From Candidatus Nealsonbacteria bacterium (GTDB lineage: Bacteria; Patescibacteriota; Minisyncoccia; Minisyncoccales; UBA6532): 64,000 nucleotides of DNA. The stretch's first letter is position 1; each line of letters opens with the position of its first letter. Shown one piece after another: positions 18,070-40,584 of the stretch. Position numbers and translations under genes: made by a program. The notes below the pieces were generated by a model. It was given only the letters and a program-made list of their open reading frames with translations, was not told the DNA's origin and did no database searches. The stretch lies in contig JACPLN010000007.1 of NCBI GenBank assembly GCA_016186485.1, positions 33,603 to 97,602 of the forward strand, given 5' to 3'.

Positions 18070-18768
18070 ATGAAGGCAATTATTTTAGCCGGGGGGAGGG
18101 CCACCCGCCTTCCAAATTCGGCAAGAGACATACCAAAAGCTCTGGTTAGGGTAGGCTCAAAAACCATAATAGAGCATCAAATAGACTGGATGAGCCGCCA
18201 GGGGATTTATGATATAAGGCTGGCATTGGGATATATGGCGGATCAAATTATAAATCACCTTGGCAGAAAGTATGAATACGTAATAGAAAAAGAGCCCTTA
18301 GGCACCGGGGGGGCGATTAAGTTCGCTTCTCTTGATCTGACCTCTAATTTTTTAGTTGTTAATGGAGATATTGTTACAAATTTGAATATTAATGGTTTAA
18401 TGGAGTCGTTTCAGCGCTCTCCTTTTCAGAACATAGTTTCTCTTTGCCAGGTTGGGAATCCGGAAAGTTTCGGTTTGGTGAAAATAGACGGCGCAAGGAT
18501 ACTGGAGTTTTTTGAAAAACCAGACCGGGGTTTAATAGAAAGCCAGCCCGCTTATTTTATCAATGCCGGAGTGTACATACTTTCGCCCGATATTTTTAAA
18601 AATATTGAACCGAAATCTTTCTTGATTGAGAAAGAAATATTCCCTATACTTGCCAAAGAAGGAAGGCTGGGAGGGTTTTTACACCAGGGTTTTTGGCAGG
18701 ATTTAGGGACAGAAGAGAGGCTGGCGAGAGTAAGGAAAATGGTTGAAGAGAGGATAATAAGGTTATGA
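18070..18768 (+). CDS. Sugar-1-phosphate nucleotidylyltransferase (mannose-1-P guanylyltransferase-like)
   Basis: MKAIILAGGRATRL ... KALVRVG ... EKEPLGTGGAI signature of the NTP_transferase family. Confidence 0.8.
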   Translation: MKAIILAGGRATRLPNSARDIPKALVRVGSKTIIEHQIDWMSRQGIYDIRLALGYMADQIINHLGRKYEYVIEKEPLGTGGAIKFASLDLTSNFLVVNGDIVTNLNINGLMESFQRSPFQNIVSLCQVGNPESFGLVKIDGARILEFFEKPDRGLIESQPAYFINAGVYILSPDIFKNIEPKSFLIEKEIFPILAKEGRLGGFLHQGFWQDLGTEERLARVRKMVEERIIRL

Positions 18769-24383: not shown

Positions 24384-24421
24384 AAAATTGTACACCGATG
24401 GTCTTAAAGACCCTTGTTTTT

Positions 24422-25369
24422 ATGCCAAAGCAAAAAACCATTTTAGTCACCGGGGGAGCCGGATTCATCGGATCTCACCTTTGCAAAAAGCTTCTGGAAT
24501 TAGGCAATAAAGTTATTTGTATTGATAACTTTTTTACCGGCAGCAGGGAAAACATTAAGGATTTTTTGAAAAATCCCAATTTTTCTTTGATAGAGCATGA
24601 TGTAACCGAACCTATTTTTGTTGCCTCTCTAGACCAAATTTATCATTTGGCATGCCCTGCTTCTCCCGTCCACTACCAGTTAAATCCCATTGAGACGGTA
24701 AGAACCAATGTCATCGGCACTGCCAATATGCTGGATTTGGCAAAAAGAGCCGGCGCGAGAATTCTTCAGGCTTCAACCTCCGAGGTTTACGGAAATCCTT
24801 TAGAGCACCCCCAAAACGAGAGTTATTGGGGAAATGTCAACCCAATAGGAATTAGGTCCTGTTACGATGAAGGAAAAAGGGTTGCTGAAACATTATTCTT
24901 GGATTATCACCGCAAAGGCGGAGTTGATATCAGGGTTGTCAGGATATTTAACACTTACGGCCCGAACATGCACAAGAACGACGGCAGGGTGGTATCAAAC
25001 TTTATTGTTCAGGCCCTGAAAGGCGAACCGTTGACCATATATGGTTCCGGAATTCACAGCAGGTCATTCCAATACGTTGACGACCTGATAGAGGGAATGG
25101 TTAAAATGATGGGCAATGAAAACGGTTTTATCGGTCCGGTCAATTTGGGTAATCCCGGTGAATTTACCATAAGGGAATTGGCAGAAACGGTGATAAGATT
25201 GATTCCCGAAAGCAAAAGCAAAATTACTTACCGCAAGCTGCCAGACGACGATCCGGAGCGCAGGCGCCCGGACATTAGTTTGGCAAAAACGAAATTAGGC
25301 TGGGAGCCAAAAGTTCCCCTTGATGAAGGCCTTAAAAAAACAATAGAATATTTTAGGAGAATTGTTTAA
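24422..25369 (+). CDS. uxs: UDP-glucuronate decarboxylase (UDP-xylose synthase)
   Basis: [73 protein letters not shown]. An alternative ATG lies at 24398. Confidence 0.85.
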
Positions 25370-26454
25370 TGGGGATAAAAAACAACAAATATTTAGTTTT
25401 GGCGCTGATTTTTGCCCTTTTTAACGCAGGGGCAATTTTCTTTATTTTTGGGGCCCAGAAATACGGCGATAGCCAGGATTATATAGAAGTTATCAATTGG
25501 TTCAGAGGAGAGCCGTCGCAGATTACCCCATGGAGATTGCTAAGGCCGCTGGGGCCTTTGATGGCTGCACCGTTTGAATTTTTAGGAAAGGGATCCGGTT
25601 TGGTTTTAGAAAACATAATTTTTTATCTGCTTTCGGCCATTCTGATATTTAAAATAACGGAATTAATTTATGGTTTTCGCCGGCAAGCCCTTTTCGCATC
25701 CATTTTTTTTGTTACGGCCACTCCCGTGATTGAATTTGGCCTGTCTTATTTAGTTGATATGGGGGGCTGGTTCTTTTATTTGCTTTCCATCTATTTAACC
25801 CTGCTTTATTTTAAGAACAAAAACGAAAGATTAATTGCAATAAACGGGCTTCTTTCCGGCATCGGGGTTTTTATGAAGGAGACGGCTGGCTTAGGAGTCA
25901 TATTTTTTGGATTAATGGTTTTGTTTTCGGGCAGCCTTAATATCAAAGAAAAAATATTCAAGATAGCGCGTTTCGGAGCATTTTTCTTAGTTCCTTTTGC
26001 CCTCATCCAGGTTTTGATATTCAGGTATTTTCATATAACTTTTTTAGACTGGTATTTAATGGGGACTAGCCGTTTTGGGGAAGGATTGCTTCTGGTGTTT
26101 TTGAGGTATCTGGGCCAGCTTTTTAGGGTCTTGGGAGCGCTTTGGCCGCTTGTTTTAATCGGGATATGGCAGGAATTACGAGAGAAAAACCTAGAAAGGA
26201 TAAAAATATTTCTGGCTCTAATTCCTTCTTCGTTTTCTTTTCTGCTTTGGACTTTTGGGGGAGGAGGGCGAGTAGCCTTTATTTTTGCCCCCCTGGGCAT
26301 TGTTTTGGCCAGCTACGGATTATATGGGCAGAAAAATAAATTAGGGATTGCGTTGTTTTTATCGGCAATGATAATTTTGAATTATTACTTTTCCTTTATT
26401 AATCCGAAAGTTGCTTTTGTAGATGAAATCGCAAAGCTTCTTGGATTATTATAA
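25369..26454 (+). CDS. Polytopic membrane protein (about 10 TM), distant relative of the 30749 and 37584 products; putative GT-C-like
   Basis: Hydrophobic throughout. Early loop LLRPLGPL resembles the RPLY(S/P)F of the two paralogs. TAATG overlap with uxs. Confidence 0.4.
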   Translation: MGIKNNKYLVLALIFALFNAGAIFFIFGAQKYGDSQDYIEVINWFRGEPSQITPWRLLRPLGPLMAAPFEFLGKGSGLVLENIIFYLLSAILIFKITELIYGFRRQALFASIFFVTATPVIEFGLSYLVDMGGWFFYLLSIYLTLLYFKNKNERLIAINGLLSGIGVFMKETAGLGVIFFGLMVLFSGSLNIKEKIFKIARFGAFFLVPFALIQVLIFRYFHITFLDWYLMGTSRFGEGLLLVFLRYLGQLFRVLGALWPLVLIGIWQELREKNLERIKIFLALIPSSFSFLLWTFGGGGRVAFIFAPLGIVLASYGLYGQKNKLGIALFLSAMIILNYYFSFINPKVAFVDEIAKLLGLL

Positions 26455-26479
26455 TTATAATATACTAAAAATATAATAT

Positions 26480-27181
26480 ATGAAACTTTCTGTCGTAATT
26501 CCGGTTTATAACGAGAAAAATACTATTTTGGAATGCCTTAATAAGGTTGAAGACGTTGACCTGGGAGCAATTGAAAAAGAAATTATTATCATTGACGACG
26601 GTTCTACAGACGGCACCAGAGAAATTTTAAAGACCATAGAAAGCAAATACAGGGTGATTTATCACGAAAAGAACCAAGGGAAGGGAATGGCAATCAGAAA
26701 CGGCTTTGGAGCGGCAAAGGGCGACGTTATTTTAATCCAGGACGCAGACTTGGAATATAACCCTTTAAATTACCCCATGCTGATCAAACCAATCTTAGAG
26801 GATCGGGCCGACGTGGTCTACGGATCCAGATTTTTAAACAAAGACTTTCGGCATATTTCTTTGTCTTTTTATCTTGGAAACAAGTTTTTAACTATTTTTT
26901 CCAACTTATTGACGGGACTTAACTTAACCGACATGGAAACCTGCTATAAGGTTTTCAGCAAGAAGGCGCTAGACGAAATTCTGCCCCATCTTACTGCCAA
27001 GCGTTTTGAGATTGAACCGGAGTTGACTGCCCGGATTTCGCAAAAAAGGCACAGATTTTTAGAGGTGGGGCTTTCTTTTATCGGGCGGTCCCGCACCCAT
27101 AAAGAGGGGAAGAAAATAAACTGGAAAGACGGTTTGGCTGCCATGCGGTATATGATAAAATTCAATTTGTTTAGCAGATGA
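26480..27181 (+). CDS. GT2 glycosyltransferase, polyprenyl-phosphate-sugar synthase-like (Dpm1/ArnC/GtrB type)
   Basis: LSVVIPVYNEKNTI, IIIDDGSTDGT, IQDADLEYNP. Confidence 0.8.
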   Translation: MKLSVVIPVYNEKNTILECLNKVEDVDLGAIEKEIIIIDDGSTDGTREILKTIESKYRVIYHEKNQGKGMAIRNGFGAAKGDVILIQDADLEYNPLNYPMLIKPILEDRADVVYGSRFLNKDFRHISLSFYLGNKFLTIFSNLLTGLNLTDMETCYKVFSKKALDEILPHLTAKRFEIEPELTARISQKRHRFLEVGLSFIGRSRTHKEGKKINWKDGLAAMRYMIKFNLFSR

Positions 27182-28107
27182 CGAGCAACTTTTGGAAAAA
27201 TAAAAAGATTTTAGTTACCGGAGCCCAGGGATTCCTGGGAAAGCATTTGGTAAAGAATCTTTTAGAGAATCGCCGGGTTCTTAAAGAAAACCTCTTTTTG
27301 CCCGCAATTGAAGAGCTTGATTTAAGAAGATGGGAAGATTGCAAGTCTGCAGTTGAAAATAAAGATATGGTTATTCACTTGGCCGCAGTTACCGGCAACG
27401 CTGAATTTCATCGGGTAAATCAGGGCAAAACATTTTACGATAATCTTATAATGGGCGTCCAGCTTATGGAGGCAGCAAGGCAGGCCGGAATTAAAAAGTT
27501 CGTATCAATAGGAAGCGTCACCGAGTATCCCAAAAAAGCCCCTTTTCCTTTTAGGGAGGATGGATTGTGGGAGGGCTACCCGGAAGAAATTCACGCGCCA
27601 TACAGTTTCGCTAAAATGATGTTATTGGTTCAAGGAAAAGCCTATCGCCAGCAATATAATTTTAATGCAATCCATTTGTTACTTACCAATATGTTCGGGC
27701 CCGGAACGAGCATGGGTAACGCCGTTATTCCTTCTGTCATAAAAAAAATTAAAGAAGCAAAGGAAGCTAAAAGAGAATTTATTGAGCTTTGGGGAACCGG
27801 AAGGCCGACCAGAGATTTTTTATACGTTGAAGACGCGGTTGAAGGAATTCTGCTTGCCGCAGAAAAGTATGATAAGTCAGAACCGGTAAATATAGGATCC
27901 GGGAAGGAATTATCCATAAAAAGTTTGGCAGATATTATTTGCCGTTTGATGAGCTTTAGCGGCAAAGTCGTTTGGGATGCCTCAAAACCAGACGGCCAGC
28001 CGAGATGGTTAATGGATACAAGCCTTGCCAAAAAAGAATTCGGGTTTGAGGCAAAAACCGCCATTGAAGAAGGCCTGATTAAAACAATTAATTATGAGCA
28101 GCAGTAA
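27178..28107 (+). CDS. GDP-L-fucose-synthase paralog lacking the epimerase acid/base residues (probable plain NDP-4-keto-6-deoxyhexose reductase)
   Basis: About 60% identical by eye to the 34730 product. Keeps YSFAK (YxxxK), but GSVTEYP replaces GTVCAYP/GSSCIYP, and SMGNAVIPS replaces the KSHVIS/NSHVIP segment with a 3-aa deletion. Confidence 0.6.
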   Translation: MTSNFWKNKKILVTGAQGFLGKHLVKNLLENRRVLKENLFLPAIEELDLRRWEDCKSAVENKDMVIHLAAVTGNAEFHRVNQGKTFYDNLIMGVQLMEAARQAGIKKFVSIGSVTEYPKKAPFPFREDGLWEGYPEEIHAPYSFAKMMLLVQGKAYRQQYNFNAIHLLLTNMFGPGTSMGNAVIPSVIKKIKEAKEAKREFIELWGTGRPTRDFLYVEDAVEGILLAAEKYDKSEPVNIGSGKELSIKSLADIICRLMSFSGKVVWDASKPDGQPRWLMDTSLAKKEFGFEAKTAIEEGLIKTINYEQQ

Positions 28108-29344
28108 AAACACAAAGGTTATAACCGCTTGCCGTTCTTGCTTTTCAAAACAGCTTATCCCTATTTTTTCATTGGGGAAATTATGCATTTCAAACTTTAT
28201 AGATCTGCCAAGGGCGAGAGAAATAAAAATGCCCCTGGAATTGGTTCTTTGCAAGAGTTGCTGGCTGCTGCAGCTGAAACATACCATATCTCAAGAACAA
28301 TTATACCGCAATTATTGGTACAGATCCGGCGTTAACAAAACAATGAGAGAAGAGCTTGCCGGCATTTCTTCAAGAGCGCCCAAATTGGTTGACCTTAATA
28401 GGGGAGATTTTGTTTTGGACATAGGAAGCAACGACAGCACGCTGCTGCTTTCTTATAAAAGAAAAGGATTAAGGCTTGTTGGATTTGAGCCGGCCAGAAA
28501 CTTAATGTCTCTTGCCAGAGCCAAAGGCGCGGACATTATCAATGATTTTTTTAACTACGAGGCTTGGAGGAAAAAATTCGGTAAAGCAAAGGCTAAAATT
28601 ATTACGGCAATCGCAATGTTTTATGACTTGGATAATCCAAATAAGTTTGTTGCGGACGCCAGAAAATGCCTTGATGAAAAAGGCGTATTTATAATTCAAA
28701 TGAGTTATTTGCCATCAATGCTTCAGCAAAATGATTTTTCCAACATTTGCCATGAGCATTTAGAATATTATTCTTTGACCTCTCTAAAAAATCTTTTATA
28801 TAGGCACGGTCTTGAGGTTTTTGACGCAGAGCTTAATGACATTAATGGAGGAAGTTTCCGCATTTATATTCAGCATAAAGGATGCAGGCCGATAAGTAAC
28901 CGCGTTAGAAAATTAGAAGAATTTGAAAAGGGACTTGGCCTTTCCAGCAAAAAACCATACAAGGAATTTATTTCCAGGATTCTTGCAGAAAGAGAAAGGC
29001 TGAATAGCTTTATTAAAAGCGAAGCTGAAAGAGGAAAGGATGTTTATGTTTACGGCGCTTCAACCAAGGGCAACACAATTCTGCAGTTTTGCAATTTAAA
29101 ATATCCTTTGATTAAAGCTGCGGCAGACAGGAATCCCATGAAATGGGGCAAAAAAACAGTCGCTACCCTAATCCCAATTATTTCCGAAGAGCAGGCCCGC
29201 AAAGAGCGCCCTGATTATTTCTTGGTTTTGCCCTGGCATTTCCTTAAAGAGTTTATTACCAGGGAAAAAAAATATCTTGAGTCGGGGGGAAAATTTATTA
29301 TACCCTTGCCAAATTTCAAAATTATTAGCCGGGAAGATTTATGA
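28094..29344 (+). CDS. NDP-hexose C-methyltransferase (TylCIII-like) with N-terminal Zn-ribbon
   Basis: CRSC...CKSC ribbon followed by WYRSG, SAM motif VLDIGSNDSTLL, and the C-terminal domain typical of sugar C-methyltransferases (VYVYGASTKGNT...ADRNP.K.GK). Confidence 0.65.
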   Translation: MSSSKNTKVITACRSCFSKQLIPIFSLGKLCISNFIDLPRAREIKMPLELVLCKSCWLLQLKHTISQEQLYRNYWYRSGVNKTMREELAGISSRAPKLVDLNRGDFVLDIGSNDSTLLLSYKRKGLRLVGFEPARNLMSLARAKGADIINDFFNYEAWRKKFGKAKAKIITAIAMFYDLDNPNKFVADARKCLDEKGVFIIQMSYLPSMLQQNDFSNICHEHLEYYSLTSLKNLLYRHGLEVFDAELNDINGGSFRIYIQHKGCRPISNRVRKLEEFEKGLGLSSKKPYKEFISRILAERERLNSFIKSEAERGKDVYVYGASTKGNTILQFCNLKYPLIKAAADRNPMKWGKKTVATLIPIISEEQARKERPDYFLVLPWHFLKEFITREKKYLESGGKFIIPLPNFKIISREDL

Positions 29345-30747
29345 AAGACGTCATTATTATTCCGACTTACAACGAAAGGGAGAATATTAAGAATCTTTTG
29401 GGAACGATTTCTTCGCTTTTTCCGAACGTTCATATTTTGGTTGTTGACGACAATTCGCCCGACCAGACCGCAAACGAGGTTAAAGAGGCCCAAAAGCAAA
29501 TTCCCAATTTAGAACTATTGTTAAGGCCCAAAAAGGAAGGTTTGGGAAGAGCTTACATTTCAGCCTTCCAAAAAGTTTTGGCCTCGGGACAGGTCAGCTC
29601 TTTGTGCACCATGGATGCCGATTTTTCCCACAGCGCCAGATATTTAAAAAATATGTTTTCCGGAATAAGAGAATTTGACGTTGTTGTAGGTTCAAGGTAC
29701 CTGAAGGAGGGGGGAGTCAGCGGATATAAGTTTTTTCGGAGAATGGTAAGTTTGGCGGCAAGCCTTTATTGCAGGATAATGTTCCGTTTGCCCATAGCCG
29801 ACTACACCAGCGGATTTATGTGCATTAGGGCCCCTTTGCTCAGGAAGATTGATTTTAGAAAAATTGACTCTTCGGGATTCGCCTTTTTAATAGAGCTGAA
29901 ATATCTTTTGTGGGAGAGGGGAGCTAAGTTTAAGGAGTTTCCAATAATTCTTGAAAACCGAAGGGAGGGAAAATCGAAAATAGGAACCCCGGTCGTTTTG
30001 GAGGGGATTCTTCTTCCCTGGAAGTTAATCATTAAAAGCTTTTCCAGGAAATTTAAGAGTCTTTCGGGGGTAATTAAAGAAGCCTTGATAAAAAGGGGGA
30101 TATTTTTCATTATTTATCACGGGCCCAGGGTTTTATACCGAAGCTGCATTAAGAAAAGTAAAGATTTCTTCGTTTTTCAGAATAAAAGGTATCAATACCT
30201 TTATCGTTTATACAATTGCACCTGCCTTAATGAAAGGTCTGTTGAGATTCCTCTTGCCCTAAAAGCGTTTGAGGAATACAAGGGAAAGAGAATTCTTGAA
30301 GTTGGCAACGTCCTTTCCCATTATTTCCCCTTTCAGCATGATGTTATAGACAAATACGAAAAGTTTGACGGCGTAATCAATCAAGATGTCGTTGATTTCC
30401 AGCCATTAGAGAAATACGACCTTATTGTGAGCGTTTCAACGCTGGAACACGTAGGGTTTGACGAAGAACCGAAAGACCCTCGGAAGATTTTATTCGCGTT
30501 AGAAAACCTAAAAAGGATTTTGGCCAGGAGGGGTAAAATATTCATTACTTTGTGCCTGGGGTATAACTTAGAAATGGACAAGCTTTTAGAAAAAGGCGCC
30601 ATTAAATTCAGCAAACAATACTTTTTAAAGAGAGTATCAAATGATAATAAATGGAAAGAGGTGAGTCAGGAGGAAGTTAAAGGAATAGGGTACGATCACG
30701 CCGGCTGGACGGCTAGGGGTTTGGTTATCGGCATTATAGAAAATTAA
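29341..30747 (+). CDS. Fusion protein: GT2 polyprenyl-phosphate-sugar synthase-like domain plus C-terminal methyltransferase-like domain
   Basis: N-terminal VIIIPTYNERENI, VVDDNSPDQT, MDADFSH (Dpm1-like). C-terminal RILEVGNVLSHYF ... YDLIVSVSTLEHVGFDE (class I methyltransferase-like). Confidence 0.7.
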   Translation: MKDVIIIPTYNERENIKNLLGTISSLFPNVHILVVDDNSPDQTANEVKEAQKQIPNLELLLRPKKEGLGRAYISAFQKVLASGQVSSLCTMDADFSHSARYLKNMFSGIREFDVVVGSRYLKEGGVSGYKFFRRMVSLAASLYCRIMFRLPIADYTSGFMCIRAPLLRKIDFRKIDSSGFAFLIELKYLLWERGAKFKEFPIILENRREGKSKIGTPVVLEGILLPWKLIIKSFSRKFKSLSGVIKEALIKRGIFFIIYHGPRVLYRSCIKKSKDFFVFQNKRYQYLYRLYNCTCLNERSVEIPLALKAFEEYKGKRILEVGNVLSHYFPFQHDVIDKYEKFDGVINQDVVDFQPLEKYDLIVSVSTLEHVGFDEEPKDPRKILFALENLKRILARRGKIFITLCLGYNLEMDKLLEKGAIKFSKQYFLKRVSNDNKWKEVSQEEVKGIGYDHAGWTARGLVIGIIEN

Positions 30748-30748
30748 A

Positions 30749-31987
30749 ATGAAAAATCTAATTCAAAATAATCGGTTTTTAACGCTTGTCTTGATATCCC
30801 TTTTGTTTTTCCAGCTGATTTACAGCTTTTTATTTCCGGCCGCGGGTTTTAACGATAATTGGCTGCCCGTCGCCGATTATCTTCCAAAGTTTAGGGTTGA
30901 GAGTTCCGACAGCTTTCTTTTAGAAAAAGTTTACCCCTTGATTCCTAGGGGTTATCGTCTGAATAGCGACGTGGGCCATTACCTGGAGCTTGCAAAAGAT
31001 TTTACCCCGGAATATTTTAAGAACCACGTTCTTCTTTCGCGTCCTCTCTATTCGTTTTTAGTTTTTTCTGTTTCTCTGCCCGGCCGTTTTTTCGTAGCGC
31101 CTTCTTACGGAATCATCTTCGGGCTGGCAATCCTGGTTAATTTTATCCTAATGACCTTTGCGGTTCTGCTGTTTTTCGGGCTTTTAAAGAAGATATTTTC
31201 TTTGAAGACGGCATTTTTGTCTTCGGTTTTGCTCATTTTTTCTCCTTTCAGCCACGCTTCCATTTTGCAGCCGAGGGCCGAGATTCTGACTGTTTTTAGC
31301 GTAGTTGCGAGCGCCTATCTTCTTTACAATTACGCCAAAAAACCTTCAACCTTTAAACTCGCAGTTTTCTCTTTGGTCATCGGAGTTTTTATGCTGGCAA
31401 AAATGTTTTTTGCCTTGCCTCTTTTCATCATCCTTTTAGCGGTTTACTTAAGGCGCTATAAAGAGGGGTTTGCCTTTTTTGTAATCCACTTGATTCCATT
31501 TTTTCTCTGGTATCTTTTTGTAACCCAGGTCTGGAGAATTCCTTTTTACATCCACGAAATCCAATATTATGGAGAAGAGATGTGGATATTTAAGATATTT
31601 CAGCTGCCATGGCAGCAAACATACAAATTATTGTTGGAGTCCCTGCCCAATTTTATTAAGGGCCTGATTTACAGTTTTCTTTTGATTCCTGTTATTTTCT
31701 CTGTAATTGGCCTCCGGCGTTTAAGGGTTTCTTTGGGAAATATTCTTTATTTGGGCCCGATTTTCTCGGTTTTTCTTCTTTCTCTCTTTACGAATACCTA
31801 TTATCCCCGCATCATATTTTTGTTGTTCCCCATTATTTATCCCACCTGCGTTTTAGGGATAGACAGGGCAGCTAATTTCTTTAAAAACTACCAATCCTGG
31901 CTTTACCCAATTTTTTATGTCGCCGCCGTCGGATTCATAATAGTTATTTCAAACATTAATATTTATCAGATCTTTTACTACCTGTGA
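30749..31987 (+). CDS. Polytopic membrane protein, paralog A of an uncharacterised GT-C-like family
   Basis: Aligns along its whole length with the 37584 product (SRPLYSFLVF / NRPLYPFFIF, LLIFSPFSHA / LFIFSPFVHT, YLRRYKEG / YFRRYKEG). Confidence 0.5.
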   Translation: MKNLIQNNRFLTLVLISLLFFQLIYSFLFPAAGFNDNWLPVADYLPKFRVESSDSFLLEKVYPLIPRGYRLNSDVGHYLELAKDFTPEYFKNHVLLSRPLYSFLVFSVSLPGRFFVAPSYGIIFGLAILVNFILMTFAVLLFFGLLKKIFSLKTAFLSSVLLIFSPFSHASILQPRAEILTVFSVVASAYLLYNYAKKPSTFKLAVFSLVIGVFMLAKMFFALPLFIILLAVYLRRYKEGFAFFVIHLIPFFLWYLFVTQVWRIPFYIHEIQYYGEEMWIFKIFQLPWQQTYKLLLESLPNFIKGLIYSFLLIPVIFSVIGLRRLRVSLGNILYLGPIFSVFLLSLFTNTYYPRIIFLLFPIIYPTCVLGIDRAANFFKNYQSWLYPIFYVAAVGFIIVISNINIYQIFYYL

Positions 31988-33666
31988 TAAAAGATAAATT
32001 TACATTAATTCTGATAGCCGTTATTGTCCTTGGTTTTTTGCTGCGCTTTTGGGGTTTTCAGTTTGAATACCTATTTAATTCTATTGACGACGAAAGCTAT
32101 CAAGGCGCTTGCCTCTTGAGAATGATACAAAATAAAAGTCTTGACCCGAACGGCTGTCCAAACCCATATCCGGCCCTATTCGTCTTAATTCATTTTCCTA
32201 GCGTTATTATTGGTTTATTTGCTTTGTTGTTAAAGGCTAATTTTGATCTAGATGTTTTTAGGGGGATTATAGCGGTTTATCCGTTTTCAATTCTGCCCGC
32301 AATAAGGTTATTTTCAATAATTGCAGGTGCCTCCCAGATTTTTTTGATTTATAAAATAACCAAATCATTGTTTGGATCCTCAACTAAAGGATTAATTGCC
32401 GCTATATTTATGGCTGTCAGCCTAATGCCGGTTCAGATGTCGCACTGGGGGCGGCCCTGGACCCTTTCTTTGTTTTTTACCCTTTTAACCCTGTATTCTG
32501 GCATACAGATTTACAAGACCGGGGAAAGGAAGCATTATATTTTAAGCGCAATTTTTGCTTCATCTGGAATCGGCATCCATTATAGCGGGTTCTTTGCCGC
32601 TGTTTTTATTGCTTTCGGCCATTTTTTCAGGAAAATTAAAACGCAATTTAGAGGCAATAAAAATTTTTACTTGGCGGTCTTTCTGACTATTTTATTTTCT
32701 GCCCTTTGGATATTTTTAAACAGAACGGAGGTTTATAACGAGTTTTTGGGGTCCGATGGATATTCTAACTACTATTATCAAGGGTCGGGCATTGCGCAAT
32801 ATTTTTCTAACGCATTTTTATTCTTAAAGCATTTTGCCGCTTTTGATCCGGTGGTTTTCCTGCTATATGCTGCCGCCTTGTTAATTAATTTCCGAAAACT
32901 GTTTACTTTTGAATATTTATTTTTAACACTCTTTTTTATTTTTTATTTAGCTTTCATGGTATTTGCGAGCCTGGGAACCTATAGTCGATGGTCTTTGCCG
33001 CTGATCGCCGTTTCTTTGCCCATAGTCGCCGATTTCCTGGGAGATCTTAAAACCAGGTTTAAAGCCCGGTTTTCTTATGGCATCTTAATCGTTTTTCTTT
33101 TATTACCTTCGTTATTTTTTTCAGCAACCTGGGACTATATGTTAAATTTGCCGAATACCCGTTTTGCGGCCAAGGATTGGATAGAAAAAAACCTGCCGAT
33201 AAATTCTAAGGTCCTGTTTTTAGACGAAACCTCTGTTTTGGCTGAGAGTCAAGAGGGCGCCAAGTACCTTAATGAAGCGCTTTCTGGAATTCGCCCTCCA
33301 AATCCCCGTTATTTATATTTAGCAGAACGCGGCCAAAATGTTTTTCCGGGATACCAAGCAGTTACCAATCGTCAGTTCCTTGACAATAGAAGCTATTTTG
33401 AATCCCAGCCATTTGATTACTATGTTTTGTCTTACAGCAACGAGAGCGAATACCAAGAAAAAGTTAATTTAATTCCGGATCAAAAGGAATTAGAATTGAT
33501 AAAGGAAATTTTGCCTTTTGACCAGTCCGTCGGCGAGGCAGGTAAAAAAAGGCGGGAATCATTTGACCCAGAGCAGGGTTTTTCCATAGAATATCTAGAA
33601 ATCCTCAGAAATATTAGGATGACCGGCCCCACCATTGAAATTTACAGGAAAATCATTAAGATATAA
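31984..33666 (+). CDS. GT-C fold glycosyltransferase (ArnT/PMT, GT39/GT83-like)
   Basis: GTG start overlapping the upstream stop. N-terminal TM then acidic first loop [10 protein letters not shown]. About 11 TM plus a soluble C-terminal domain. Confidence 0.55.
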
Positions 33667-33670
33667 CTAT

Positions 33671-34729
33671 ATGGCAAAAAAAGCGCTTATAACGGGTATT
33701 ACGGGCCAAGACGGAAGTTATCTTGCCGAACTTTTGCTGTCTTTAGGCTATGAAACCCATGGCATCATTAGACGGGCAAGCACTTTTAATACCTCAAGAA
33801 TAGACCACCTTATTGAAGCAGATAAAAAATTGCCCGGCAGCCTTTTCTTGCACTACGGAGACATGGTTGACGCTACCGGCCTTATCCCGCTAATTCAGAA
33901 AATCCAGCCAGACGAGGTCTATAATTTAGCCGCCCAATCTCATGTAAAGGTATCTTTTGAAACCGCAGAATATACCTCAAATGCCGACGGCCTCGGAACC
34001 CTAAGGGTTTTAGAGGCTATTCGGCTTTTAAACCTGACCCAGAAAACCAAATTTTATCAAGCCTCAACAAGCGAATTATTTGGCAGGGTTCGGGAAATAC
34101 CTCAAACGGAAAGCACCGCTTTTTACCCCAGGAGCCCTTATGCCGTAGCCAAACTTTACGCTTTTTGGATAACGAAGAATTACAGAGAGGCGTACAACTT
34201 TTTTACCTGCAACGGAATACTTTTTAATCATGAAAGCCCGAGACGCGGCGAAACTTTTGTTACCAGAAAGATAACCAGGGGGATAGCCAGAATTAAAGCG
34301 GGCTTGGATAATAAAATTTACTTGGGCAATCTTGAGGCCAAAAGGGATTGGGGTTTTGCCCCGGAATACGTGGAAACAATGTGGAAAATGCTCCAGCAAG
34401 ACAATCCGGATGACTATGTGGTGGCAACCGCTGAACAGCACTCAGTAAGGGAATTTTTGGAAGAGGCTTTTAGGTATGCAGGTTTTGATTCTTGGGAAAA
34501 GCATGTTGAAACCGATTCCAGATATTTGAGGCCAACCGAAGCAGATGATTTACTGGGAAATCCCCTAAAAGCAAAAGAAAAATTAGGCTGGGAGCCGAAA
34601 ATAAAATTTAGAGAGCTTGTTAGGATTATGATAGACGCCGATTTTAGAAAATTGGGTTTAGCGGTCCCCGGCGATGGTGATAAAATTCTAAAAGAAAAAT
34701 TCCCCAATCGCTGGTGGTCGGGAGACTAA
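33671..34729 (+). CDS. gmd: GDP-mannose 4,6-dehydratase
   Basis: [70 protein letters not shown]. Confidence 0.95.
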
Positions 34730-35683
34730 ATGATTGACCTTGCAAAAAAGAAAATTTTGCTGACGGGGGCTCAGGGATTTTTGGGAAAGCATTTAGTCAA
34801 GAATCTTTTGGAGAAAAGAAAACTCCCAAAAGAAAATTTATTTTTGCCGAGTTTTGAAGAACTTGATTTGAGAAAATGGGAAGATTGCCAAAGAGCTGTT
34901 CTTGGGCAGGATATGGTTATTCATCTGGCAGCAATGGTTGGAGGAATAGGCCTGAATAAGGAAAGGCCGGGCGAACTTTTTTATAACAACATCGTAATGG
35001 GAGCCCATCTTATGGAGGCAGCAAGGCAGGCCAAAGTAGAGAAATTCGTGGCAATCGGGACGGTTTGCGCCTACCCAAAGCTTACTCCGATTCCCTTTAA
35101 AGAGGAAAACCTCTGGGACGGCTATCCGGAAGAAACCAACGCTCCATATGGATTAGCGAAAAAAATGCTTTTGGTTCAGGCCCAGGCATATCGCAAGCAA
35201 TACGGATTCAACGCTATTTACTTGCTTCCTGTCAACATGTATGGATCGGGGGACAGCTTTGAACCCCAAAAGTCCCACGTGATCTCCGCCCTTATTAGAA
35301 AAATATATGAAGCTAAGAGAGACGGCAAAAACCATATTGAGGCCTGGGGAACGGGGAGCGCAACCAGGGAGTTCCTTTATGTGGAAGACGGGGCAGAAGG
35401 AATTATTTTGGCTGCCGAAAGGTACGATAAGCAAGACCCCATTAATCTGGGCTCCTCAATAGAAATTTCAATCAAGGATCTGGCGGAAAAAATTTGCAAA
35501 CTAATGGGCTTTAAAGGAGAAATCAGATGGGATAAAAGCAAGCCAGATGGTCAGCCAAGGCGCAAACTTGACGTTTCCAGAGCAAAAAAAGAATTCGGTT
35601 TTACAGCCAGCATTCCCTTTGACGAGGGCCTTAAAAAAACAATAGATTGGTTCTCGGCAAACGCTAAAGAAATCTGCGAATAA
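34730..35683 (+). CDS. fcl: GDP-L-fucose synthase (GDP-4-keto-6-deoxymannose 3,5-epimerase/4-reductase)
   Basis: Directly follows gmd. GTVCAYP (Cys109 equivalent), YGLAK (YxxxK), KSHVISALIRK (His179 equivalent), SKPDGQPRRKLD. Confidence 0.85.
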   Translation: MIDLAKKKILLTGAQGFLGKHLVKNLLEKRKLPKENLFLPSFEELDLRKWEDCQRAVLGQDMVIHLAAMVGGIGLNKERPGELFYNNIVMGAHLMEAARQAKVEKFVAIGTVCAYPKLTPIPFKEENLWDGYPEETNAPYGLAKKMLLVQAQAYRKQYGFNAIYLLPVNMYGSGDSFEPQKSHVISALIRKIYEAKRDGKNHIEAWGTGSATREFLYVEDGAEGIILAAERYDKQDPINLGSSIEISIKDLAEKICKLMGFKGEIRWDKSKPDGQPRRKLDVSRAKKEFGFTASIPFDEGLKKTIDWFSANAKEICE

Positions 35684-35695
35684 AACAAAAATAAA

Positions 35696-36349
35696 ATGAA
35701 AGTATCCGTACTTATTCCGACTTTTAACGAAGTAAATAATATCGGAAAGGTTCTTGATGAAATTCCGAAAGATTCGGTTAGCGAAGTGCTTATTATAGAC
35801 GGCCATTCTAATGATGGCACCGTTGAGATGGTAAAGAAGTTAGGCTACCCCGTTATTTTTCAGAAGAATAAAGGTTTTGGTTCGGCTGTTTCAGAGGGGA
35901 TGCAGGCTATCGGGGGCGAAGTGGCGGTTTTGATTAATGGGGATTACTCTCAAAACCCAAAAGATATTCCCTTGCTTTTAAAAAAGATTGAAGAGGGGTA
36001 TGACTTTGTAATGGCTTCAAGGTATCTGCCAGGATCCGGTTCCGCTGACGACACCGTCTTGCATTATTTGGGGAACAGGCTATTTACGCATCTTTGCAAC
36101 TTTATTCACGGTTCCCATTATTCCGATACTCTTTATTTCTTTTTTGCCGTAAAGAAACGCGTTTTTGAAAAAATAAAAGTAGAGTCTCCCGGGTTTGAAT
36201 ATTGCATGGAGCTGCCTATTAAAATTCATAAAGCGGGTTTTAAGATCGCCCAGATCCCTTCTTTTGAAAGAAAAAGGACCACGGGCCAGGCAAAGGTTAA
36301 AGCTTTCAGCGACGGATGGAAAATTCTTAAAGCGATATTCAAGCACTAG
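35696..36349 (+). CDS. GT2 glycosyltransferase, polyprenyl-phosphate-sugar synthase-like
   Basis: VSVLIPTFNEVNNI, IIDGHSNDGT, INGDYSQNP. Confidence 0.75.
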   Translation: MKVSVLIPTFNEVNNIGKVLDEIPKDSVSEVLIIDGHSNDGTVEMVKKLGYPVIFQKNKGFGSAVSEGMQAIGGEVAVLINGDYSQNPKDIPLLLKKIEEGYDFVMASRYLPGSGSADDTVLHYLGNRLFTHLCNFIHGSHYSDTLYFFFAVKKRVFEKIKVESPGFEYCMELPIKIHKAGFKIAQIPSFERKRTTGQAKVKAFSDGWKILKAIFKH

Positions 36350-36350
36350 C

Positions 36351-37196
36351 ATGACTTTAGCTGTTTTTTTGGATAATCTCTTTTCTTTTTTAACCGAAAA
36401 CCGCTTATCAAGAATGTTTTTAAGGTTTTTGCAGGGCCTGGTGAGGTTTCCCAAAGACGTTGGAATTAGGATTGAAAACAATGTTTTCTATGCCAGAACT
36501 CTTGATAGGGTCGTTGCCTTGTATCTAAGGAAGTTTTTTTTCTCCAAGTCCTTTGAGGCAAATCTTTTTAGGTCGGTTTTAAGGCAGGGAATGCGGGTTA
36601 TTGATGTCGGGGCAAATTTCGGGTATTACACCGTTGTTTCAGCGGATTTTATTGGCAGGGAGGGCAGGGTGTTTGCTTTTGAACCGGATCCAGGAAACTT
36701 CTCTTTGCTTTTGAAGAATATAGATGTTAATGGATGCGAAAATGTTGAAGCTTTAAATTTAGCGATTTCAGATAAACCTGGCAAAACCACGCTTTTTTTG
36801 TCAAAAGAACATCATGGCGACCACAGGATTTATGACAACCACGAGGGTAGAAAGGCAATAAACGTTGAAGCTACAGCCCTGGACATTTTTTTTGATAAAA
36901 ATCCAAAAGCGGATATAATAAAAGTAGACGTTCAGGGGGCCGAGGCCAAAGTTTTTAGCGGCATGAAAATGCTGATAGAGAAAAATCCCCAAGTTCTTGT
37001 TTTCACCGAATTTTGGCCAAAGGGGTTAAGGCAAGCCGGGGTTTCCCCAAAAGACTTTTTGAACCAAATACAGGATTTGGGCTTTTCAATAAGCATTATT
37101 GACGAAGCGGCAAAATCCCTGAAAACCTCTACGATTGACGGCGTTCTTAAAGCAAGCGAGAAAGCCCCATATCTTAATTTATTTTTAAAGAAGTAA
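36351..37196 (+). CDS. FkbM-family methyltransferase
   Basis: VIDVGANFGYYTV, VFAFEPDPGNFSLLLKNI, IIKVDVQGAE. Track ORF 36195 is a 5' extension overlapping the previous gene; the ATG at 36351 follows its stop by 1 nt. Confidence 0.8.
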   Translation: MTLAVFLDNLFSFLTENRLSRMFLRFLQGLVRFPKDVGIRIENNVFYARTLDRVVALYLRKFFFSKSFEANLFRSVLRQGMRVIDVGANFGYYTVVSADFIGREGRVFAFEPDPGNFSLLLKNIDVNGCENVEALNLAISDKPGKTTLFLSKEHHGDHRIYDNHEGRKAINVEATALDIFFDKNPKADIIKVDVQGAEAKVFSGMKMLIEKNPQVLVFTEFWPKGLRQAGVSPKDFLNQIQDLGFSISIIDEAAKSLKTSTIDGVLKASEKAPYLNLFLKK

Positions 37197-37204
37197 TACC
37201 AAAA

Positions 37205-37582
37205 ATGCCTCTTAGGTTTTTATTAATATTTCTTTCCGTTTTGGTTACGGTTACTGCCCAGCTTTTTATCAAAATGGGAGTTGTATCGCTGGGAAAGTTT
37301 TCTATTTCCTTTGGCAGTCTTCCGGACTTGATTTTAAGGGTGTTGCAGAATATTTGGATAATGGGTGGCCTAATTCTGTTTGGATTAAGTTTTGCATTGT
37401 GGATTTTAATATTGTCCAGACTCCAGTTGAATGTTATTTATCCCGTAATAGTAAGCCTTAATTTTTCCCTGATAGCGATAGTCTCCTGGTTCTTATTCAA
37501 AGAATATCTGTCTTTGGTCCAGGTTTTAGGAATCATCATTATCATTTTTGGCGTATTTTTGGTTTTACCAAAGGGAGTATAG
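37205..37582 (+). CDS. Small 4-TM SMR/EamA-like membrane protein (ArnE/ArnF-like polyprenyl-P-sugar flippase candidate)
   Basis: 125 aa with four hydrophobic segments. Lies between a GT2/methyltransferase pair and GT-C-like membrane proteins. Confidence 0.55.
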   Translation: MPLRFLLIFLSVLVTVTAQLFIKMGVVSLGKFSISFGSLPDLILRVLQNIWIMGGLILFGLSFALWILILSRLQLNVIYPVIVSLNFSLIAIVSWFLFKEYLSLVQVLGIIIIIFGVFLVLPKGV

Positions 37583-37583
37583 T

Positions 37584-38849
37584 ATGAAAAAGAGATTTTA
37601 TATCCCTCTTTTAATCTCCTTTTCTCTTTTGCAATTTGTTTCCGGTCTTTTTTATCCGGTTTCGCTCTCCAACCCGGATTGGTATCCTTTAACGTCTTAT
37701 CTGCAGAATGAAAAAATCATTTTGCCTTTTTCATCCGACTACCGTTTCCTTGAAGACGGCTGGGGATACCTGGAATCAGCCAGGAATTTTCCGGAAGAGC
37801 TTGGAAAACGCTTTACCGTTAATCGTCCGCTCTATCCGTTTTTTATTTTCCTTGCTTCCCTGCCTTTCTCTTTTTTTGGCTCTCCGTCACCCGGTCTGAT
37901 TTTTAGCCTGGCTATAGCGATTAATCTTGTTTTGTTGTGCCTCGCGTCTATTTTGTTTTATTCCCTTCTAAAGAACCTGTTTTCTTCAAGGGTGGCGCTG
38001 CTTTCTTCTTTCCTTTTTATTTTTTCTCCTTTTGTCCATACTCTTTTAGTTCAGCCATTAGCCGAAATCTTAATGGCTTTTTTAGCAGTGATTTTTGCCT
38101 GTTTTATTTATGATTATTTCAAGAAACCCTCTCTTTTAAAATTGATAACTTATTCTTTGATAGTCGGAATTCTTTTATTGGGCAAGGTTTTTTTTGCCTT
38201 TTCTCTTTTTGTTGTTTTCTTAGCCCTTTATTTCAGGCGCTATAAAGAAGGAGCTATTTTTACCATTGTTCATTTGATCCCTTTAGCGCTTTGGTATTTA
38301 TTGGTTACGCGGATTTGGCAAATTCCTTACCAGACAGCCGAAGTAGGGCATTGGGGAATGGGTGTTTGGATTCTTGAAATACTCAGTTCGCCGCGGCTTG
38401 AAACAGCCAAAGCCTTTTTGAGGTCCGTCCCTTATTTCCTAACCGCTTTATTTTATGGTTTCTTCATTATCCCTGTTGTTTTTTCTTTTTTTGGCCTTCA
38501 AAGATTTCCATTTAGATCAAGAAAAATAATTTATTTTTGTTCAATTGTTTCGGTTTTCATTCTCGGTTTTGTAGCGAATGTCTATGCCTATCGCCATGCC
38601 TTTTTGGTTTTCCCGGTTATTTACCCTGCCGCGGTCTTAGGAATGGAAAGGGCAGGAGCTTTTTTTGGCAAAGATAAAAAATGGCTGCGGTCTTTGTTTT
38701 TGGCGGTTATAATCGGTGTTTTGGTTTTCGCTTCAAACATCAATTTCTCAAAGATTTTCGGATTTAACTATTACGGCCTGGTTCATTGGACCCAGTGGCC
38801 ATTGCCGGGTTTTTTGGAAAATATCTTTAAATCGTTAAACGGCTATTAA
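37584..38849 (+). CDS. Polytopic membrane protein, paralog B of the uncharacterised GT-C-like family
   Basis: AAGGGAG RBS. Full-length similarity to the 30749 product (see that entry). Confidence 0.5.
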   Translation: MKKRFYIPLLISFSLLQFVSGLFYPVSLSNPDWYPLTSYLQNEKIILPFSSDYRFLEDGWGYLESARNFPEELGKRFTVNRPLYPFFIFLASLPFSFFGSPSPGLIFSLAIAINLVLLCLASILFYSLLKNLFSSRVALLSSFLFIFSPFVHTLLVQPLAEILMAFLAVIFACFIYDYFKKPSLLKLITYSLIVGILLLGKVFFAFSLFVVFLALYFRRYKEGAIFTIVHLIPLALWYLLVTRIWQIPYQTAEVGHWGMGVWILEILSSPRLETAKAFLRSVPYFLTALFYGFFIIPVVFSFFGLQRFPFRSRKIIYFCSIVSVFILGFVANVYAYRHAFLVFPVIYPAAVLGMERAGAFFGKDKKWLRSLFLAVIIGVLVFASNINFSKIFGFNYYGLVHWTQWPLPGFLENIFKSLNGY

Positions 38850-38859
38850 TTTTACAAAT

Positions 38860-40584
38860 ATGACAAGGGCCTTGGAGATTATAAAAAACCATAAAGCAGC
38901 TTTTATCTTAGCCGTTTTGACCGGCATTATCGTAGCTTCCCCCCAGATTTATTTTCCTTATGAAAATAGAGAAACCTACAAAGGAATTTTCTATACCTGC
39001 ACCGATAACGAGTCTTTTTATTTCAGCAGAGTCCGGGAGGTAAAAGATGGCTATCCTGGGTTGGGCAGCGCGATTTTCCAGGACGGGAAAGAAGATCCCT
39101 ATTTGCAGTCCCCGTTTGGAGAGATTTTAACAGGATTCTTGGGGAAGATTTTATTTTTAGGGATAAACAATACTATTTTATTAGCCAGGTTTCTTTTTCC
39201 TTTTTTGGTCTTTTTGCTGCTATACGGTTTTGTTTTCTCTTTTACAAAAAGGAGGTTATTCGCCCTATCTGCTTCCTCGGCCCTTCTTCTTGGCAACAGC
39301 CTTTTTACCCGTCATGTTATCCCGACTTTATTGCGGGGAGAAGCTTTGGGCACCACCTTTTTGGACTTTTTTCGTCCGGTTCAGCCCCAGACAAATCTTC
39401 TTTTTTTCTTCGCTTTCCTTTTCTTTTTCTGGCTGTTTTTTGAAAAAAAGCAGTGGCGGTGGGGAGGCGTTAGCGCCTTGATATTTGGCCTTTCTTTTTA
39501 CGTTTACCCCTATACCTGGACTTTTCTTTCCGCTTTTTTGGGGGTTTTGATAATCATCCTTTTCTTCAAAAGGAGGCTTCGGGACGCAAAGAAAATAGCT
39601 CTTATGGCTTTGACCGGAATAATTATCGCCATTCCATATTTTTTAAACTTATACCGGGCTCTTTTGCACCCCTATTTCACAGACGCCACGAGGAGGTTTG
39701 GCATAATTGAGGGCCGCCCGCTGATTATTGGATTTTTGCTGCCCGCGCTTTTCATTATTTTTTTGCTATTCTTTCCGAAAAAATGGAAAGAACAATTTGT
39801 CTTTTCTTTAGCCCTGCTTTTATCCCCGTTTTTGGTTTTGAACCAGCAGCTGATAACCGGTAAGACCATGGCTACCGGCCACTATCATTGGTTTATCAGC
39901 CGCCCAATAGCCCTTGTTTTTTTGATAATTATTCTTTTCTATCAGGCAGGGCGCATAAATGCAAAAATACCGAAAATATTAGCGGTTTTTATAATCGGAA
40001 TGAGTATTTATGCCGGCATAAACATTCAGGCCGCTTCCTATGAGGAATGCAAAGATCAAATTCTAAGCGAGCAAAGATATGCTCCAATTATCCAATGGTT
40101 AGATAAAAACGCCAATAAGGGGGAAGTAGTTCTTGCAGATTCCGACCCTTCAAACTTTATTTCCATATACACACCATTAAATCTTTTTTACGCTTCTCCT
40201 GCCCATTATTATCTTTCGGCCCCAGATGAAAGGGTGCTTGAAAGCATATTTTTATTTTATAGGCTGGAGGGGCTGGCGGGGAGAGAAGCTAAAGAATTTT
40301 TCCTGCAAGATAAAGAGAGAGAGTATATTTCAAGAAGCGTTTACAATGAATATTATAAGGAAAAGCTGGGCGATACGGCAGCCATTCCCGATGAGGTTAT
40401 CATTTCTTTCGCTGAAAAATATAAGAAGTTTTTGCTGGTTCCATTAGAAAAAATCCTTAAAAGGTACAAAGTAAATTATGTGGTTTGGGATAAGAAAAAA
40501 CACCCTTTTTGGCAACTGGACCAATACCAATTCTTAAAGCCAGCTTACGAGATTGAAGACTTCAAAATTTATATCATTAAATGA
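38860..40584 (+). CDS. Large polytopic membrane protein with soluble C-terminal domain (GT-C-like)
   Basis: N-terminal TM then acidic loop CTDNESFYFSRVREV. At least 10 TM, then a roughly 170-aa hydrophilic tail. Confidence 0.45.
   Translation: MTRALEIIKNHKAAFILAVLTGIIVASPQIYFPYENRETYKGIFYTCTDNESFYFSRVREVKDGYPGLGSAIFQDGKEDPYLQSPFGEILTGFLGKILFLGINNTILLARFLFPFLVFLLLYGFVFSFTKRRLFALSASSALLLGNSLFTRHVIPTLLRGEALGTTFLDFFRPVQPQTNLLFFFAFLFFFWLFFEKKQWRWGGVSALIFGLSFYVYPYTWTFLSAFLGVLIIILFFKRRLRDAKKIALMALTGIIIAIPYFLNLYRALLHPYFTDATRRFGIIEGRPLIIGFLLPALFIIFLLFFPKKWKEQFVFSLALLLSPFLVLNQQLITGKTMATGHYHWFISRPIALVFLIIILFYQAGRINAKIPKILAVFIIGMSIYAGINIQAASYEECKDQILSEQRYAPIIQWLDKNANKGEVVLADSDPSNFISIYTPLNLFYASPAHYYLSAPDERVLESIFLFYRLEGLAGREAKEFFLQDKEREYISRSVYNEYYKEKLGDTAAIPDEVIISFAEKYKKFLLVPLEKILKRYKVNYVVWDKKKHPFWQLDQYQFLKPAYEIEDFKIYIIK

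Follow-up and report, generated by a model that had tools for sequence, protein, structure and literature searches.

A stretch of 64,000 nt from the genome of Candidatus Nealsonbacteria bacterium (GCA_016186485.1, contig JACPLN010000007.1, positions 33,603-97,602 forward), here called the window and used as the reference for all coordinates, carries two adjacent genes that are predicted to act on a GDP-linked sugar. The first, FclX (P0001; 27178..28107, on the + strand like all features described here), encodes a 309-aa extended short-chain dehydrogenase/reductase (SDR) of the GDP-L-fucose synthase family (Fcl, also named GMER or GFS). The second (P0002; 28094..29344) encodes a sugar C-methyltransferase of the TylC3/TcaB9/MtmC type. 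The host belongs to the Patescibacteria (Candidate Phyla Radiation, CPR) and has a genome of 687 kb that is 98% complete. Glycan genes fill roughly 8.9-49 kb of the window, as judged by Pfam and NCBIfam scans, and include a GDP-mannose 4,6-dehydratase (Gmd, 33635..34729) and a canonical Fcl (P0003, 34730..35683). The best explanation of the gene pair, to which we assign a little over even probability on comparative grounds, would be a route in which the Gmd product is C-methylated as a GDP-sugar and then reduced at C4 without epimerisation.

The Cys/His pair of GDP-L-fucose synthase carries out both epimerisations of the sugar, at C3 and at C5. In FclX, Thr115 (codon 27520..27522) takes the place of the epimerase base (Cys109 in Escherichia coli GMER, Cys116 in human GFS), and Ala182 (codon 27721..27723) takes that of the epimerase acid (His179 and His186, respectively), directly preceded by a three-residue deletion. 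The motifs concerned are GSVTEYP (residues 112-118), YSFAK (142-146) and GNAVIPS (180-186), compared to GTVCAYP, YGLAK and KSHVIS in the canonical P0003, which shares 61% identity with FclX (BLASTP). The BLASTP alignment of these two proteins places Thr115 opposite Cys113 and Ala182 opposite His183. Both substitutions recur in HMMER alignments with the solved GDP-fucose synthases 7ll6, 8du0 and human 4bkp and in a MAFFT alignment of 121 sequences, and none of these alignments puts a Cys or His at either catalytic site of FclX. The initial annotation had read the same residues and the same deletion in FclX, with YSFAK kept, and an intact pair in the Fcl at 34730, and these readings hold throughout.

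The reductase part of the enzyme is intact. The Rossmann GxxGxxG motif for NADP(H) binding is retained (TGAQGFLG, residues 14-21), as is the reduction triad Ser113/Tyr142/Lys146, which aligns to the triad of the solved enzymes. FclX scores 165 bits against the Pfam Epimerase domain and its best solved relatives are GDP-fucose synthases (HMMER, E 2e-45 to 1e-35). GDP-L-fucose synthase (NF047922; EC 1.1.1.271) is also its top-scoring NCBIfam model. With 203 bits, FclX stays below the 500-bit equivalog cut-off of this model, but as the canonical P0003 does so too (282 bits), failing this cut-off is by itself a weak criterion. The predicted structure of P0001 has a mean pLDDT (predicted local distance difference test score) of 79 and falls below 50 at residues 71-83 and 115-144, the substrate loops holding His78, Thr115 and His139, where the model is unreliable and was not used for geometry.

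FclX had initially been described as a paralog that has lost its epimerase residues, but the phylogeny shows it to be part of an older, conserved subfamily. When GTDB was scanned with each species represented by a single genome, 80 loci were obtained that hold 94 Fcl-like proteins, 14 of these proteins being devoid of the Cys; the labels of the loci nearest to the window are those of Saccharibacteria. In a tree built without the columns around the Cys and His sites, all 15 non-Cys proteins, the FclX of the window included, form one group (Shimodaira-Hasegawa-like approximate likelihood ratio test, SH-aLRT, 97) that also includes one long-branch row, and the Cys/non-Cys label changes twice on this tree versus a mean of 14 times for shuffled labels. 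The canonical Fcl of the window clusters with the canonical Fcl of other genomes and FclX with the FclX of other lineages. The duplication is therefore old, and a recent local duplication followed by decay is rejected.

All clade members share the triad. The Cys position is filled by Thr, in rare cases by Ala or Val, and Tyr, Phe, Gly, Ala and Leu are all encountered at the His position. Such a variable His site next to an invariant triad would be expected of enzymes that have abandoned the acid/base role. In the protein collection, 27 of the 121 best homologs carry Thr in place of the Cys and 25 carry Tyr in place of the His, with 68 columns invariant among the 27 clade members. Compared to 92 canonical homologs, the clade has the signature V72T, N78H, T113S, C115T, N139H, P169L, H182Y and E213D. 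Two of these positions relate to the sugar pocket, which in human GFS is formed by Asn79 and Asn140 moving in (PMC12362431). His139 of FclX aligns directly with human Asn140 (HMMER), and the column of His78 is Asn in all canonical homologs, the pairwise HMMER alignment being off by one residue there. Given the loss of the dyad and the exchange of two pocket Asn residues for His, the sugar pocket thus appears to have been rebuilt as well as disarmed. The human GFS variants C116A and H186A are inactive (PMC12362431), so that a working FclX must have a pocket adapted to an unepimerised substrate, in agreement with the signature changes. The Cys-less Fcl clade is further diversified, as two genomes each have two different adjacent Cys-less Fcl-like genes (L086:5968-8851 and L114:2428-4442), which in L086 flank a canonical Fcl.

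The partner enzyme P0002 consists of the domains PF08421 (Methyltransf_13, residues 13-71), PF13489 (Methyltransf_23, 84-242) and PF08484 (Methyltransf_14, 250-406). Its closest solved relative is MtmC, a D-mycarose 3-C-methyltransferase (E 5e-66), followed by TcaB9 (1e-42) and a further sugar 3-C-methyltransferase (1e-40). Aligned with MtmC and TcaB9 are Cys13, Cys16, Cys53 and Cys56, LDIGSND (108-114), GFEPA (130-134) and the pair Glu221-His222, which, from the TcaB9 literature, we take to be the zinc site, the S-adenosylmethionine (SAM)-binding motif I, the acidic residue that follows it and the Glu-His pair of the active site, respectively. The earlier assignment of this protein to the zinc-site C-methyltransferases of sugars is thereby borne out, including, at the level of sequence motifs, its predicted binding of SAM.

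Inteins seem common in this methyltransferase clade, with intein/Hint domains (PF14528, PF14890) located inside the enzyme in approximately 28 of the best 120 long P0002 homologs (e.g. P0126, P0128-P0130, P0135, P0138, P0142 and P0148). Fusion partners of the C-methyltransferase include DegT-type aminotransferases, GT4 glycosyltransferases, a radical-SAM domain and FkbM methyltransferases (P0131, P0136, P0143, P0150, P0163-P0168, P0133, P0188 and P0217), and one protein of 1116 aa combines DegT, C-methyltransferase and Fcl. This variety of fusions hints at a family of branched sugars on a GDP carrier, comprising both amino and deoxy sugars.

The nucleotide carrier of the methyltransferase substrate is indicated by another set of fusions. 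A Gmd-like domain is present in 72 of the best 120 long P0002 homologs, 58 times at the C-terminus and 14 times at the N-terminus, and the methyltransferase part of these proteins is 41-58% identical to P0002. One example is L053, in which a single frame of 785 aa holds a Gmd domain (531 bits, cut-off 415) and the C-methyltransferase domains. When five fusions were compared to NCBIfam, the dehydratase domain matched the Gmd family alone (E 1e-40 or better), and two fusions, P0127 and L053, pass the Gmd cut-off. Furthermore, Gmd is present in 16/16 sampled genomes with a P0002 ortholog versus 129/401 overall. In the host genome, Gmd is the sole NDP-hexose 4,6-dehydratase above its cut-off, and nothing in this 98% complete genome comes near the cut-off for dTDP-glucose 4,6-dehydratase (RmlB; best 156 versus 365 bits), by which a dTDP route is rejected for the host. 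Because of the Gmd fusions, the presence of Gmd in all ortholog genomes and the lack of RmlB in the host, the predicted substrate of the C-methyltransferase clade is, with high probability, GDP-4-keto-6-deoxy-D-mannose. Across the 401 sampled Patescibacteria genomes, 129 have Gmd and 17 an Fcl-like gene, so the majority of Gmd products in CPR bacteria must end up in non-fucose sugars. Genome G154, which is marked as unpublished, turned up in the Gmd survey and is not used as a basis for any conclusion.

FclX and the C-methyltransferase tend to occur together. There are 12 GTDB loci in which an Fcl-like gene is of the non-Cys type, and 7 of them hold a C-methyltransferase at least 45% identical to P0002, compared to 4 of the 68 loci with only a Cys-type Fcl. 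One of the latter four, L071, in fact has an FclX-type gene (GSATEYP; L071:8841-9900) that is apparently split in two frames, beside a canonical Fcl and a C-methyltransferase; the split may be a frameshift or an assembly error. In the 12 loci a C-methyltransferase lies directly downstream of five FclX genes, four of these enzymes being 55-63% identical to P0002 and one (L114) 33%, and this adjacent order of FclX and C-methyltransferase recurs in several lineages. Three further FclX genomes have a P0002 ortholog of 56-60% identity elsewhere in the genome. In all, 10/12 FclX genomes have a close C-methyltransferase ortholog, against a background of 16/400 sampled Patescibacteria genomes (~4%) with an ortholog of at least 40% identity, counts that are descriptive and not statistical tests, as the genomes are related to one another. 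Of the remaining two FclX genomes, one has a distant C-methyltransferase homolog only. The FclX loci also contain Gmd in 11/12 and a canonical Fcl in 9/12 cases.

The pathway that would follow starts with Gmd converting GDP-D-mannose to GDP-4-keto-6-deoxy-D-mannose. The C-methyltransferase (28094) would deprotonate this sugar beside the 4-keto group and add the methyl group of SAM, more likely at C3, as in its solved relatives, with C5 being a chemically possible alternative. FclX (27178) would subsequently reduce the 4-keto group with NAD(P)H by means of Ser113, Tyr142 and Lys146, and is thus a predicted NADPH-dependent GDP-(C-methyl)-4-keto-6-deoxyhexose 4-reductase. We infer these catalytic steps, the action of FclX after the C-methyltransferase, and the site and stereochemistry of methylation from the comparisons above. 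With its Cys/His dyad lost and its sugar pocket rebuilt, FclX is not expected to epimerise either C3 or C5. Since a methylated C3 has no proton and the acid/base pair is missing, FclX should also leave C5 untouched, so that a D-series sugar is expected and the product would be a GDP-6-deoxy-C-methyl-D-hexose. The same order of steps on a GDP carrier had been proposed in the initial annotation, and it is supported by the Gmd fusions, the 16/16 occurrence of Gmd, the lack of RmlB, the 10/12 co-occurrence and the precedent of DdahC discussed below.

The simplest products are the 6-deoxy-3-C-methyl-D-hexoses of the manno, talo, altro or ido series. Retention at C3 would lead to the manno (evalose) or talo series and inversion at C3 to the altro or ido series; for TylC3, inversion at C3 has been cited (PMC3539893). 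Of the evalose/virenose class suggested initially, evalose therefore stands among the simplest products, but virenose does not, as D-virenose (gulo) needs an additional C2 epimerisation and L-virenose a C5 epimerisation.

Downstream of the pair lie a glycosyltransferase of family 2 (GT2; 29341..30747), a polytopic membrane protein (30749..31987) with 11 hydrophobic segments and a weak match to PMT_2 (E 6e-4), resembling glycosyltransferases of the GT-C fold, and a GT-C (PMT_2, 3.6e-10) glycosyltransferase (31984..33666). The GT2 is Dpm1/ArnC-like in residues 1-225 (Pfam Glycos_transf_2; PpgS/AglJ-like in NCBIfam) and is predicted to be the polyprenyl-phosphate sugar synthase for the branched sugar. 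It would probably pass the sugar to polyprenyl phosphate, after which the GT-C proteins (30749, 31984) would use the lipid-linked sugar outside the membrane. This lipid-carrier route is what family resemblance, taken alone, suggests. A GT2 like the N-terminal part of 29341 also adjoins the C-methyltransferase ortholog in 10/16 Patescibacteria loci, and PMT_2-type GT-C genes and extra SAM methyltransferases often join this combination. Meanwhile, the canonical Fcl (34730) would produce GDP-L-fucose in parallel for its own set of GT2 and GT-C proteins.

Taken together, Gmd, a GDP-specific C-methyltransferase clade and an epimerase-less clade of Fcl-type reductases may form an uncharacterised pathway for GDP-linked branched-chain 6-deoxyhexoses. 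This pathway would be widespread in CPR bacteria and small archaea, often in the form of Gmd::methyltransferase fusions. A Dpm1-like enzyme would load its product on polyprenyl phosphate, and GT-C enzymes would carry out the attachment outside the membrane. For this broader proposal, which is drawn from comparative genomics, the chances of being right or wrong are evenly balanced.

Compared to the GDP-L-fucose synthases, e.g. those of E. coli (1E6U) and human (4BKP), FclX is alike in being an extended SDR with the NADP motif, the Ser/Tyr/Lys triad and a Gmd context. However, it differs in having Thr/Ala instead of Cys/His, His/His instead of the pocket Asn pair, and a C-methyltransferase partner. 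Fcl homologs in which the dyad is altered have been described in Campylobacter jejuni, where DdahC (Thr110/His180) and MlghC (Tyr108/Arg180) are C4 reductases of GDP-4-keto-6-deoxyheptose that were experimentally found to be without epimerase activity; furthermore, a DdahC T110C mutant gains none (PMC7949155). FclX resembles DdahC in its Fcl fold, its retained triad and its Thr at the Cys site (Thr115 compared to Thr110). In contrast to FclX, however, DdahC and MlghC have heptose substrates, act after the separate cupin epimerases DdahB and MlghB, and have no link to C-methylation. No cupin domain is found among the Pfam results of the operon proteins. The C. jejuni chains 7anh, 7anc, 7m13, 7cxt and 8ewu match P0001 with E 1e-26 to 1e-29, more weakly than true fucose synthases, and being the more distant relatives they must have lost the dyad independently of FclX.

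The C-methyltransferase shares with TylC3, EryBIII, TcaB9, MtmC and KijD1 the three-domain architecture, the four-Cys zinc site, the SAM motif and the Glu-His pair, and the chemistry of the TylC3/TcaB9 type requires a 4-keto sugar. The characterised TylC3-type members act on dTDP-sugars in antibiotic pathways of actinomycetes, whereas the P0002 clade is linked to Gmd through fusions and co-occurrence and is located in operons for surface glycans in CPR bacteria and small archaea.

The closest parallel to the whole route is Coxiella burnetii, in which reportedly only the GDP-mannose steps of the virenose route are characterised. An in-silico GDP route to virenose has been proposed for this organism with CBU_0689 (Gmd), CBU_0691 (TylCIII-like) and CBU_0688 (GMER), and its Fcl-type enzyme, in which C109 and H179 are reported to be conserved, was proposed to epimerise (PMC3539893). 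As in Coxiella, Gmd, a TylCIII-like methyltransferase and an Fcl-type enzyme occur together (27178-35683 in the window), and both routes are in silico. However, in the window it is a dyad-less paralog that adjoins the methyltransferase, beside a separate canonical Fcl, and the apparent route of the sugar leads via polyprenyl-phosphate and GT-C enzymes rather than O-antigen. No characterisation of a GDP-dependent sugar C-methyltransferase or of the Thr-type Fcl clade was found in the open-access literature, which is weak evidence of absence.

Several observations weigh against methylation followed by reduction without epimerisation. At the level of FclX, the two His residues gained in the pocket (78 and 139) leave room for residual epimerase chemistry, human GFS with Ser at the Cys site (C116S) keeps a weak abstraction of the C3 proton (PMC12362431), and the FclX of the window has Ala at the His site where most of the clade has Tyr. 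FclX might thus still epimerise, e.g. at C5 only, via His78, His139 or the weak base Thr115, giving an L-series or C5-inverted branched sugar that is L-virenose-like or vinelose-like. This would be in line with the conservation of both Asn to His changes across the clade, at positions whose counterparts Asn79 and Asn140 have a pocket role in human GFS (PMC12362431), and with the Tyr of most members as a possible proton donor. We nevertheless consider it unlikely, for Thr is a poor base, the residue at the His site varies within the clade (with Ala in the window), DdahC with its Thr/His has no epimerase activity and acquires none by the T110C mutation (PMC7949155), and a canonical Fcl is kept in 9/12 FclX loci, which points to a different job for FclX. 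Even less credible is that FclX is a decayed and catalytically dead paralog, a reading we hold to be extremely improbable: two catalytic residues of the parent enzyme are gone and the match to the Fcl equivalog model reaches no more than 203 bits, but the frame, the GxxGxxG motif and the triad are all intact, the clade is conserved across lineages with its 68 invariant columns, and the canonical paralog also falls short of the equivalog cut-off.

At the level of the gene pair, the 14-nt overlap between the stop of FclX and the start of the C-methyltransferase (28094..28107; ATG at 28094, TAA at 28105-28107), put forward initially as translational coupling, is real. However, it is not peculiar to the pair, as both flanking junctions (27178 and 29341) are ATGA overlaps; tight packing is the norm across the operon. 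A search for a C-methyltransferase in one FclX genome, G402, found none. Conversely, an Fcl-like gene lies beside the C-methyltransferase ortholog in 0/16 Patescibacteria loci, and only 2/16 of these genomes (G250 and G354) have an Fcl-like gene at all, canonical in both; of the 17/401 sampled Patescibacteria genomes with an Fcl-like gene, 15 are readable and 0 of these are of the FclX type. The idea that the C-methyltransferase is always accompanied by FclX is accordingly rejected. Furthermore, a canonical Cys/His Fcl-like domain is fused to the C-methyltransferase in three proteins (P0125, P0217 and P0237), and in an Acetothermia locus (L064) a canonical Fcl directly precedes it, so the canonical Fcl of the window could also process the methylated intermediate. 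As most C-methyltransferase-ortholog genomes have no Fcl-like gene, FclX looks like one optional finishing enzyme among several possible ones rather than an obligate partner, and the methylated intermediate seems to be finished in at least two ways, by an epimerase/reductase (as proposed for Coxiella) or by FclX.

These distributions also fit an FclX that works independently of the C-methyltransferase, as a Rmd- or Tld-like enzyme that turns the plain Gmd product into GDP-D-rhamnose or GDP-6-deoxy-D-talose, while reduction of the methylated intermediate falls to the canonical Fcl or to the methyltransferase. Among solved proteins, P0002 is closest to MtmC, which is reported to be a bifunctional ketoreductase-methyltransferase, and Gmd is present in 11/12 FclX loci. 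Yet a close methyltransferase ortholog in 10/12 FclX genomes against a background of ~4%, and the adjacent gene order in several lineages, would not be expected of a plain rhamnose or talose synthase, and we rate this independence as rather improbable. The site of methylation offers a variant of the same pathway, in which the methyl group is placed on C5 and a 5-C-methyl (gem-dimethyl) 6-deoxyhexose results. NovU, of noviose synthesis, is a C5-methylating member of the same methyltransferase family. C3 and C5 are both alpha to the 4-keto group, the absence of the two epimerase residues is compatible with methylation at either carbon, and epimerisation of a methylated C5 would be meaningless, which would explain the relaxed dyad. 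The matched solved relatives (MtmC, TcaB9 and the KijD1 type) are, however, all 3-C-methyltransferases and C3 is also assumed in the Coxiella model (PMC3539893), making this variant distinctly improbable. Finally, the biochemically studied members of the methyltransferase family all act on dTDP-sugars (PDB titles; PMC3539893) and the window encodes three UXS/ArnA/GalE-like SDRs, so that P0002 could use a dTDP- or UDP-linked 4-keto sugar with the GDP-pathway genes as coincidental neighbours. The 72 Gmd fusions, the 16/16 ortholog genomes with Gmd and the missing dTDP-glucose 4,6-dehydratase make this very improbable.

The proposed GDP pathway combines known kinds of enzymes in a new way that is supported by comparative genomics. 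If it is true, ultrasmall, host-dependent microbes would possess a new surface sugar, and the sugar C-methyltransferase of the pathway would be the first to depend on GDP. Such a GDP-dependent clade would extend the chemistry of branched sugars from the dTDP-sugars of antibiotic producers to primary surface glycans. It would also make the GDP route to virenose-type sugars, long a hypothesis, accessible to enzymology. In itself, the Cys-less Fcl clade represents a natural experiment, in which a bifunctional epimerase/reductase would have become a pure reductase by the loss of the dyad and the exchange of two pocket Asn residues for His. For the biology of CPR bacteria, the identity of a cell-coat sugar bears on the contact between episymbiont and host, and the 687-kb genome devotes ~40 kb to glycan genes.

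Three similar gene sets are arranged around FclX. The first (24398-27181) contains a UXS/ArnA-like SDR, a GT-C and a GT2. The second (27178-33666) comprises FclX, the C-methyltransferase, the GT2 with a C-terminal extension and the two GT-C-like membrane proteins; genes similar to its GT-C at 31984, the predicted user of the lipid-linked sugar, flank C-methyltransferase orthologs, and neighbours like its GT2 do so as well. In the third (33635-40584), Gmd and Fcl are accompanied by a GT2, an FkbM methyltransferase, a small ArnF-like protein and two membrane proteins. The GT2 proteins resemble polyprenyl-phosphate sugar synthases of the Dpm1/ArnC/AglJ type (NCBIfam). The C-terminal extension of ~240 aa in the GT2 at 29341-30747 has no Pfam domain and no hydrophobic segment. 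That it might correspond to the small SAM methyltransferase of other loci is rejected, as it has no similarity to those flanking C-methyltransferase orthologs.

Gmd scores 526-527 bits against TIGR01472 (cut-off 415). As listed, its open reading frame begins with a TTG and thereby overlaps the GT-C gene before it (33635-33671); the ATG at 33671 is the likelier start, as homolog alignments begin at residue 13-15. The canonical Fcl next to it, identified by NCBIfam and BLASTP and grouping with the canonical Fcl of other genomes, has a Thr/Tyr/Lys triad besides its Cys113 and His183. Further upstream, a sugar-1-phosphate nucleotidyltransferase (18070..18768; Pfam NTP_transferase) is tentatively a mannose-1-phosphate guanylyltransferase, the best NCBIfam match being man1P_GTase with 122 bits, below the cut-off of 440. 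In the fucose module, the GT2 and the FkbM methyltransferase are followed by a 125-aa protein (37205-37582) with similarity to the ArnF flippase subunit (47.5 bits, below the cut-off of 99).

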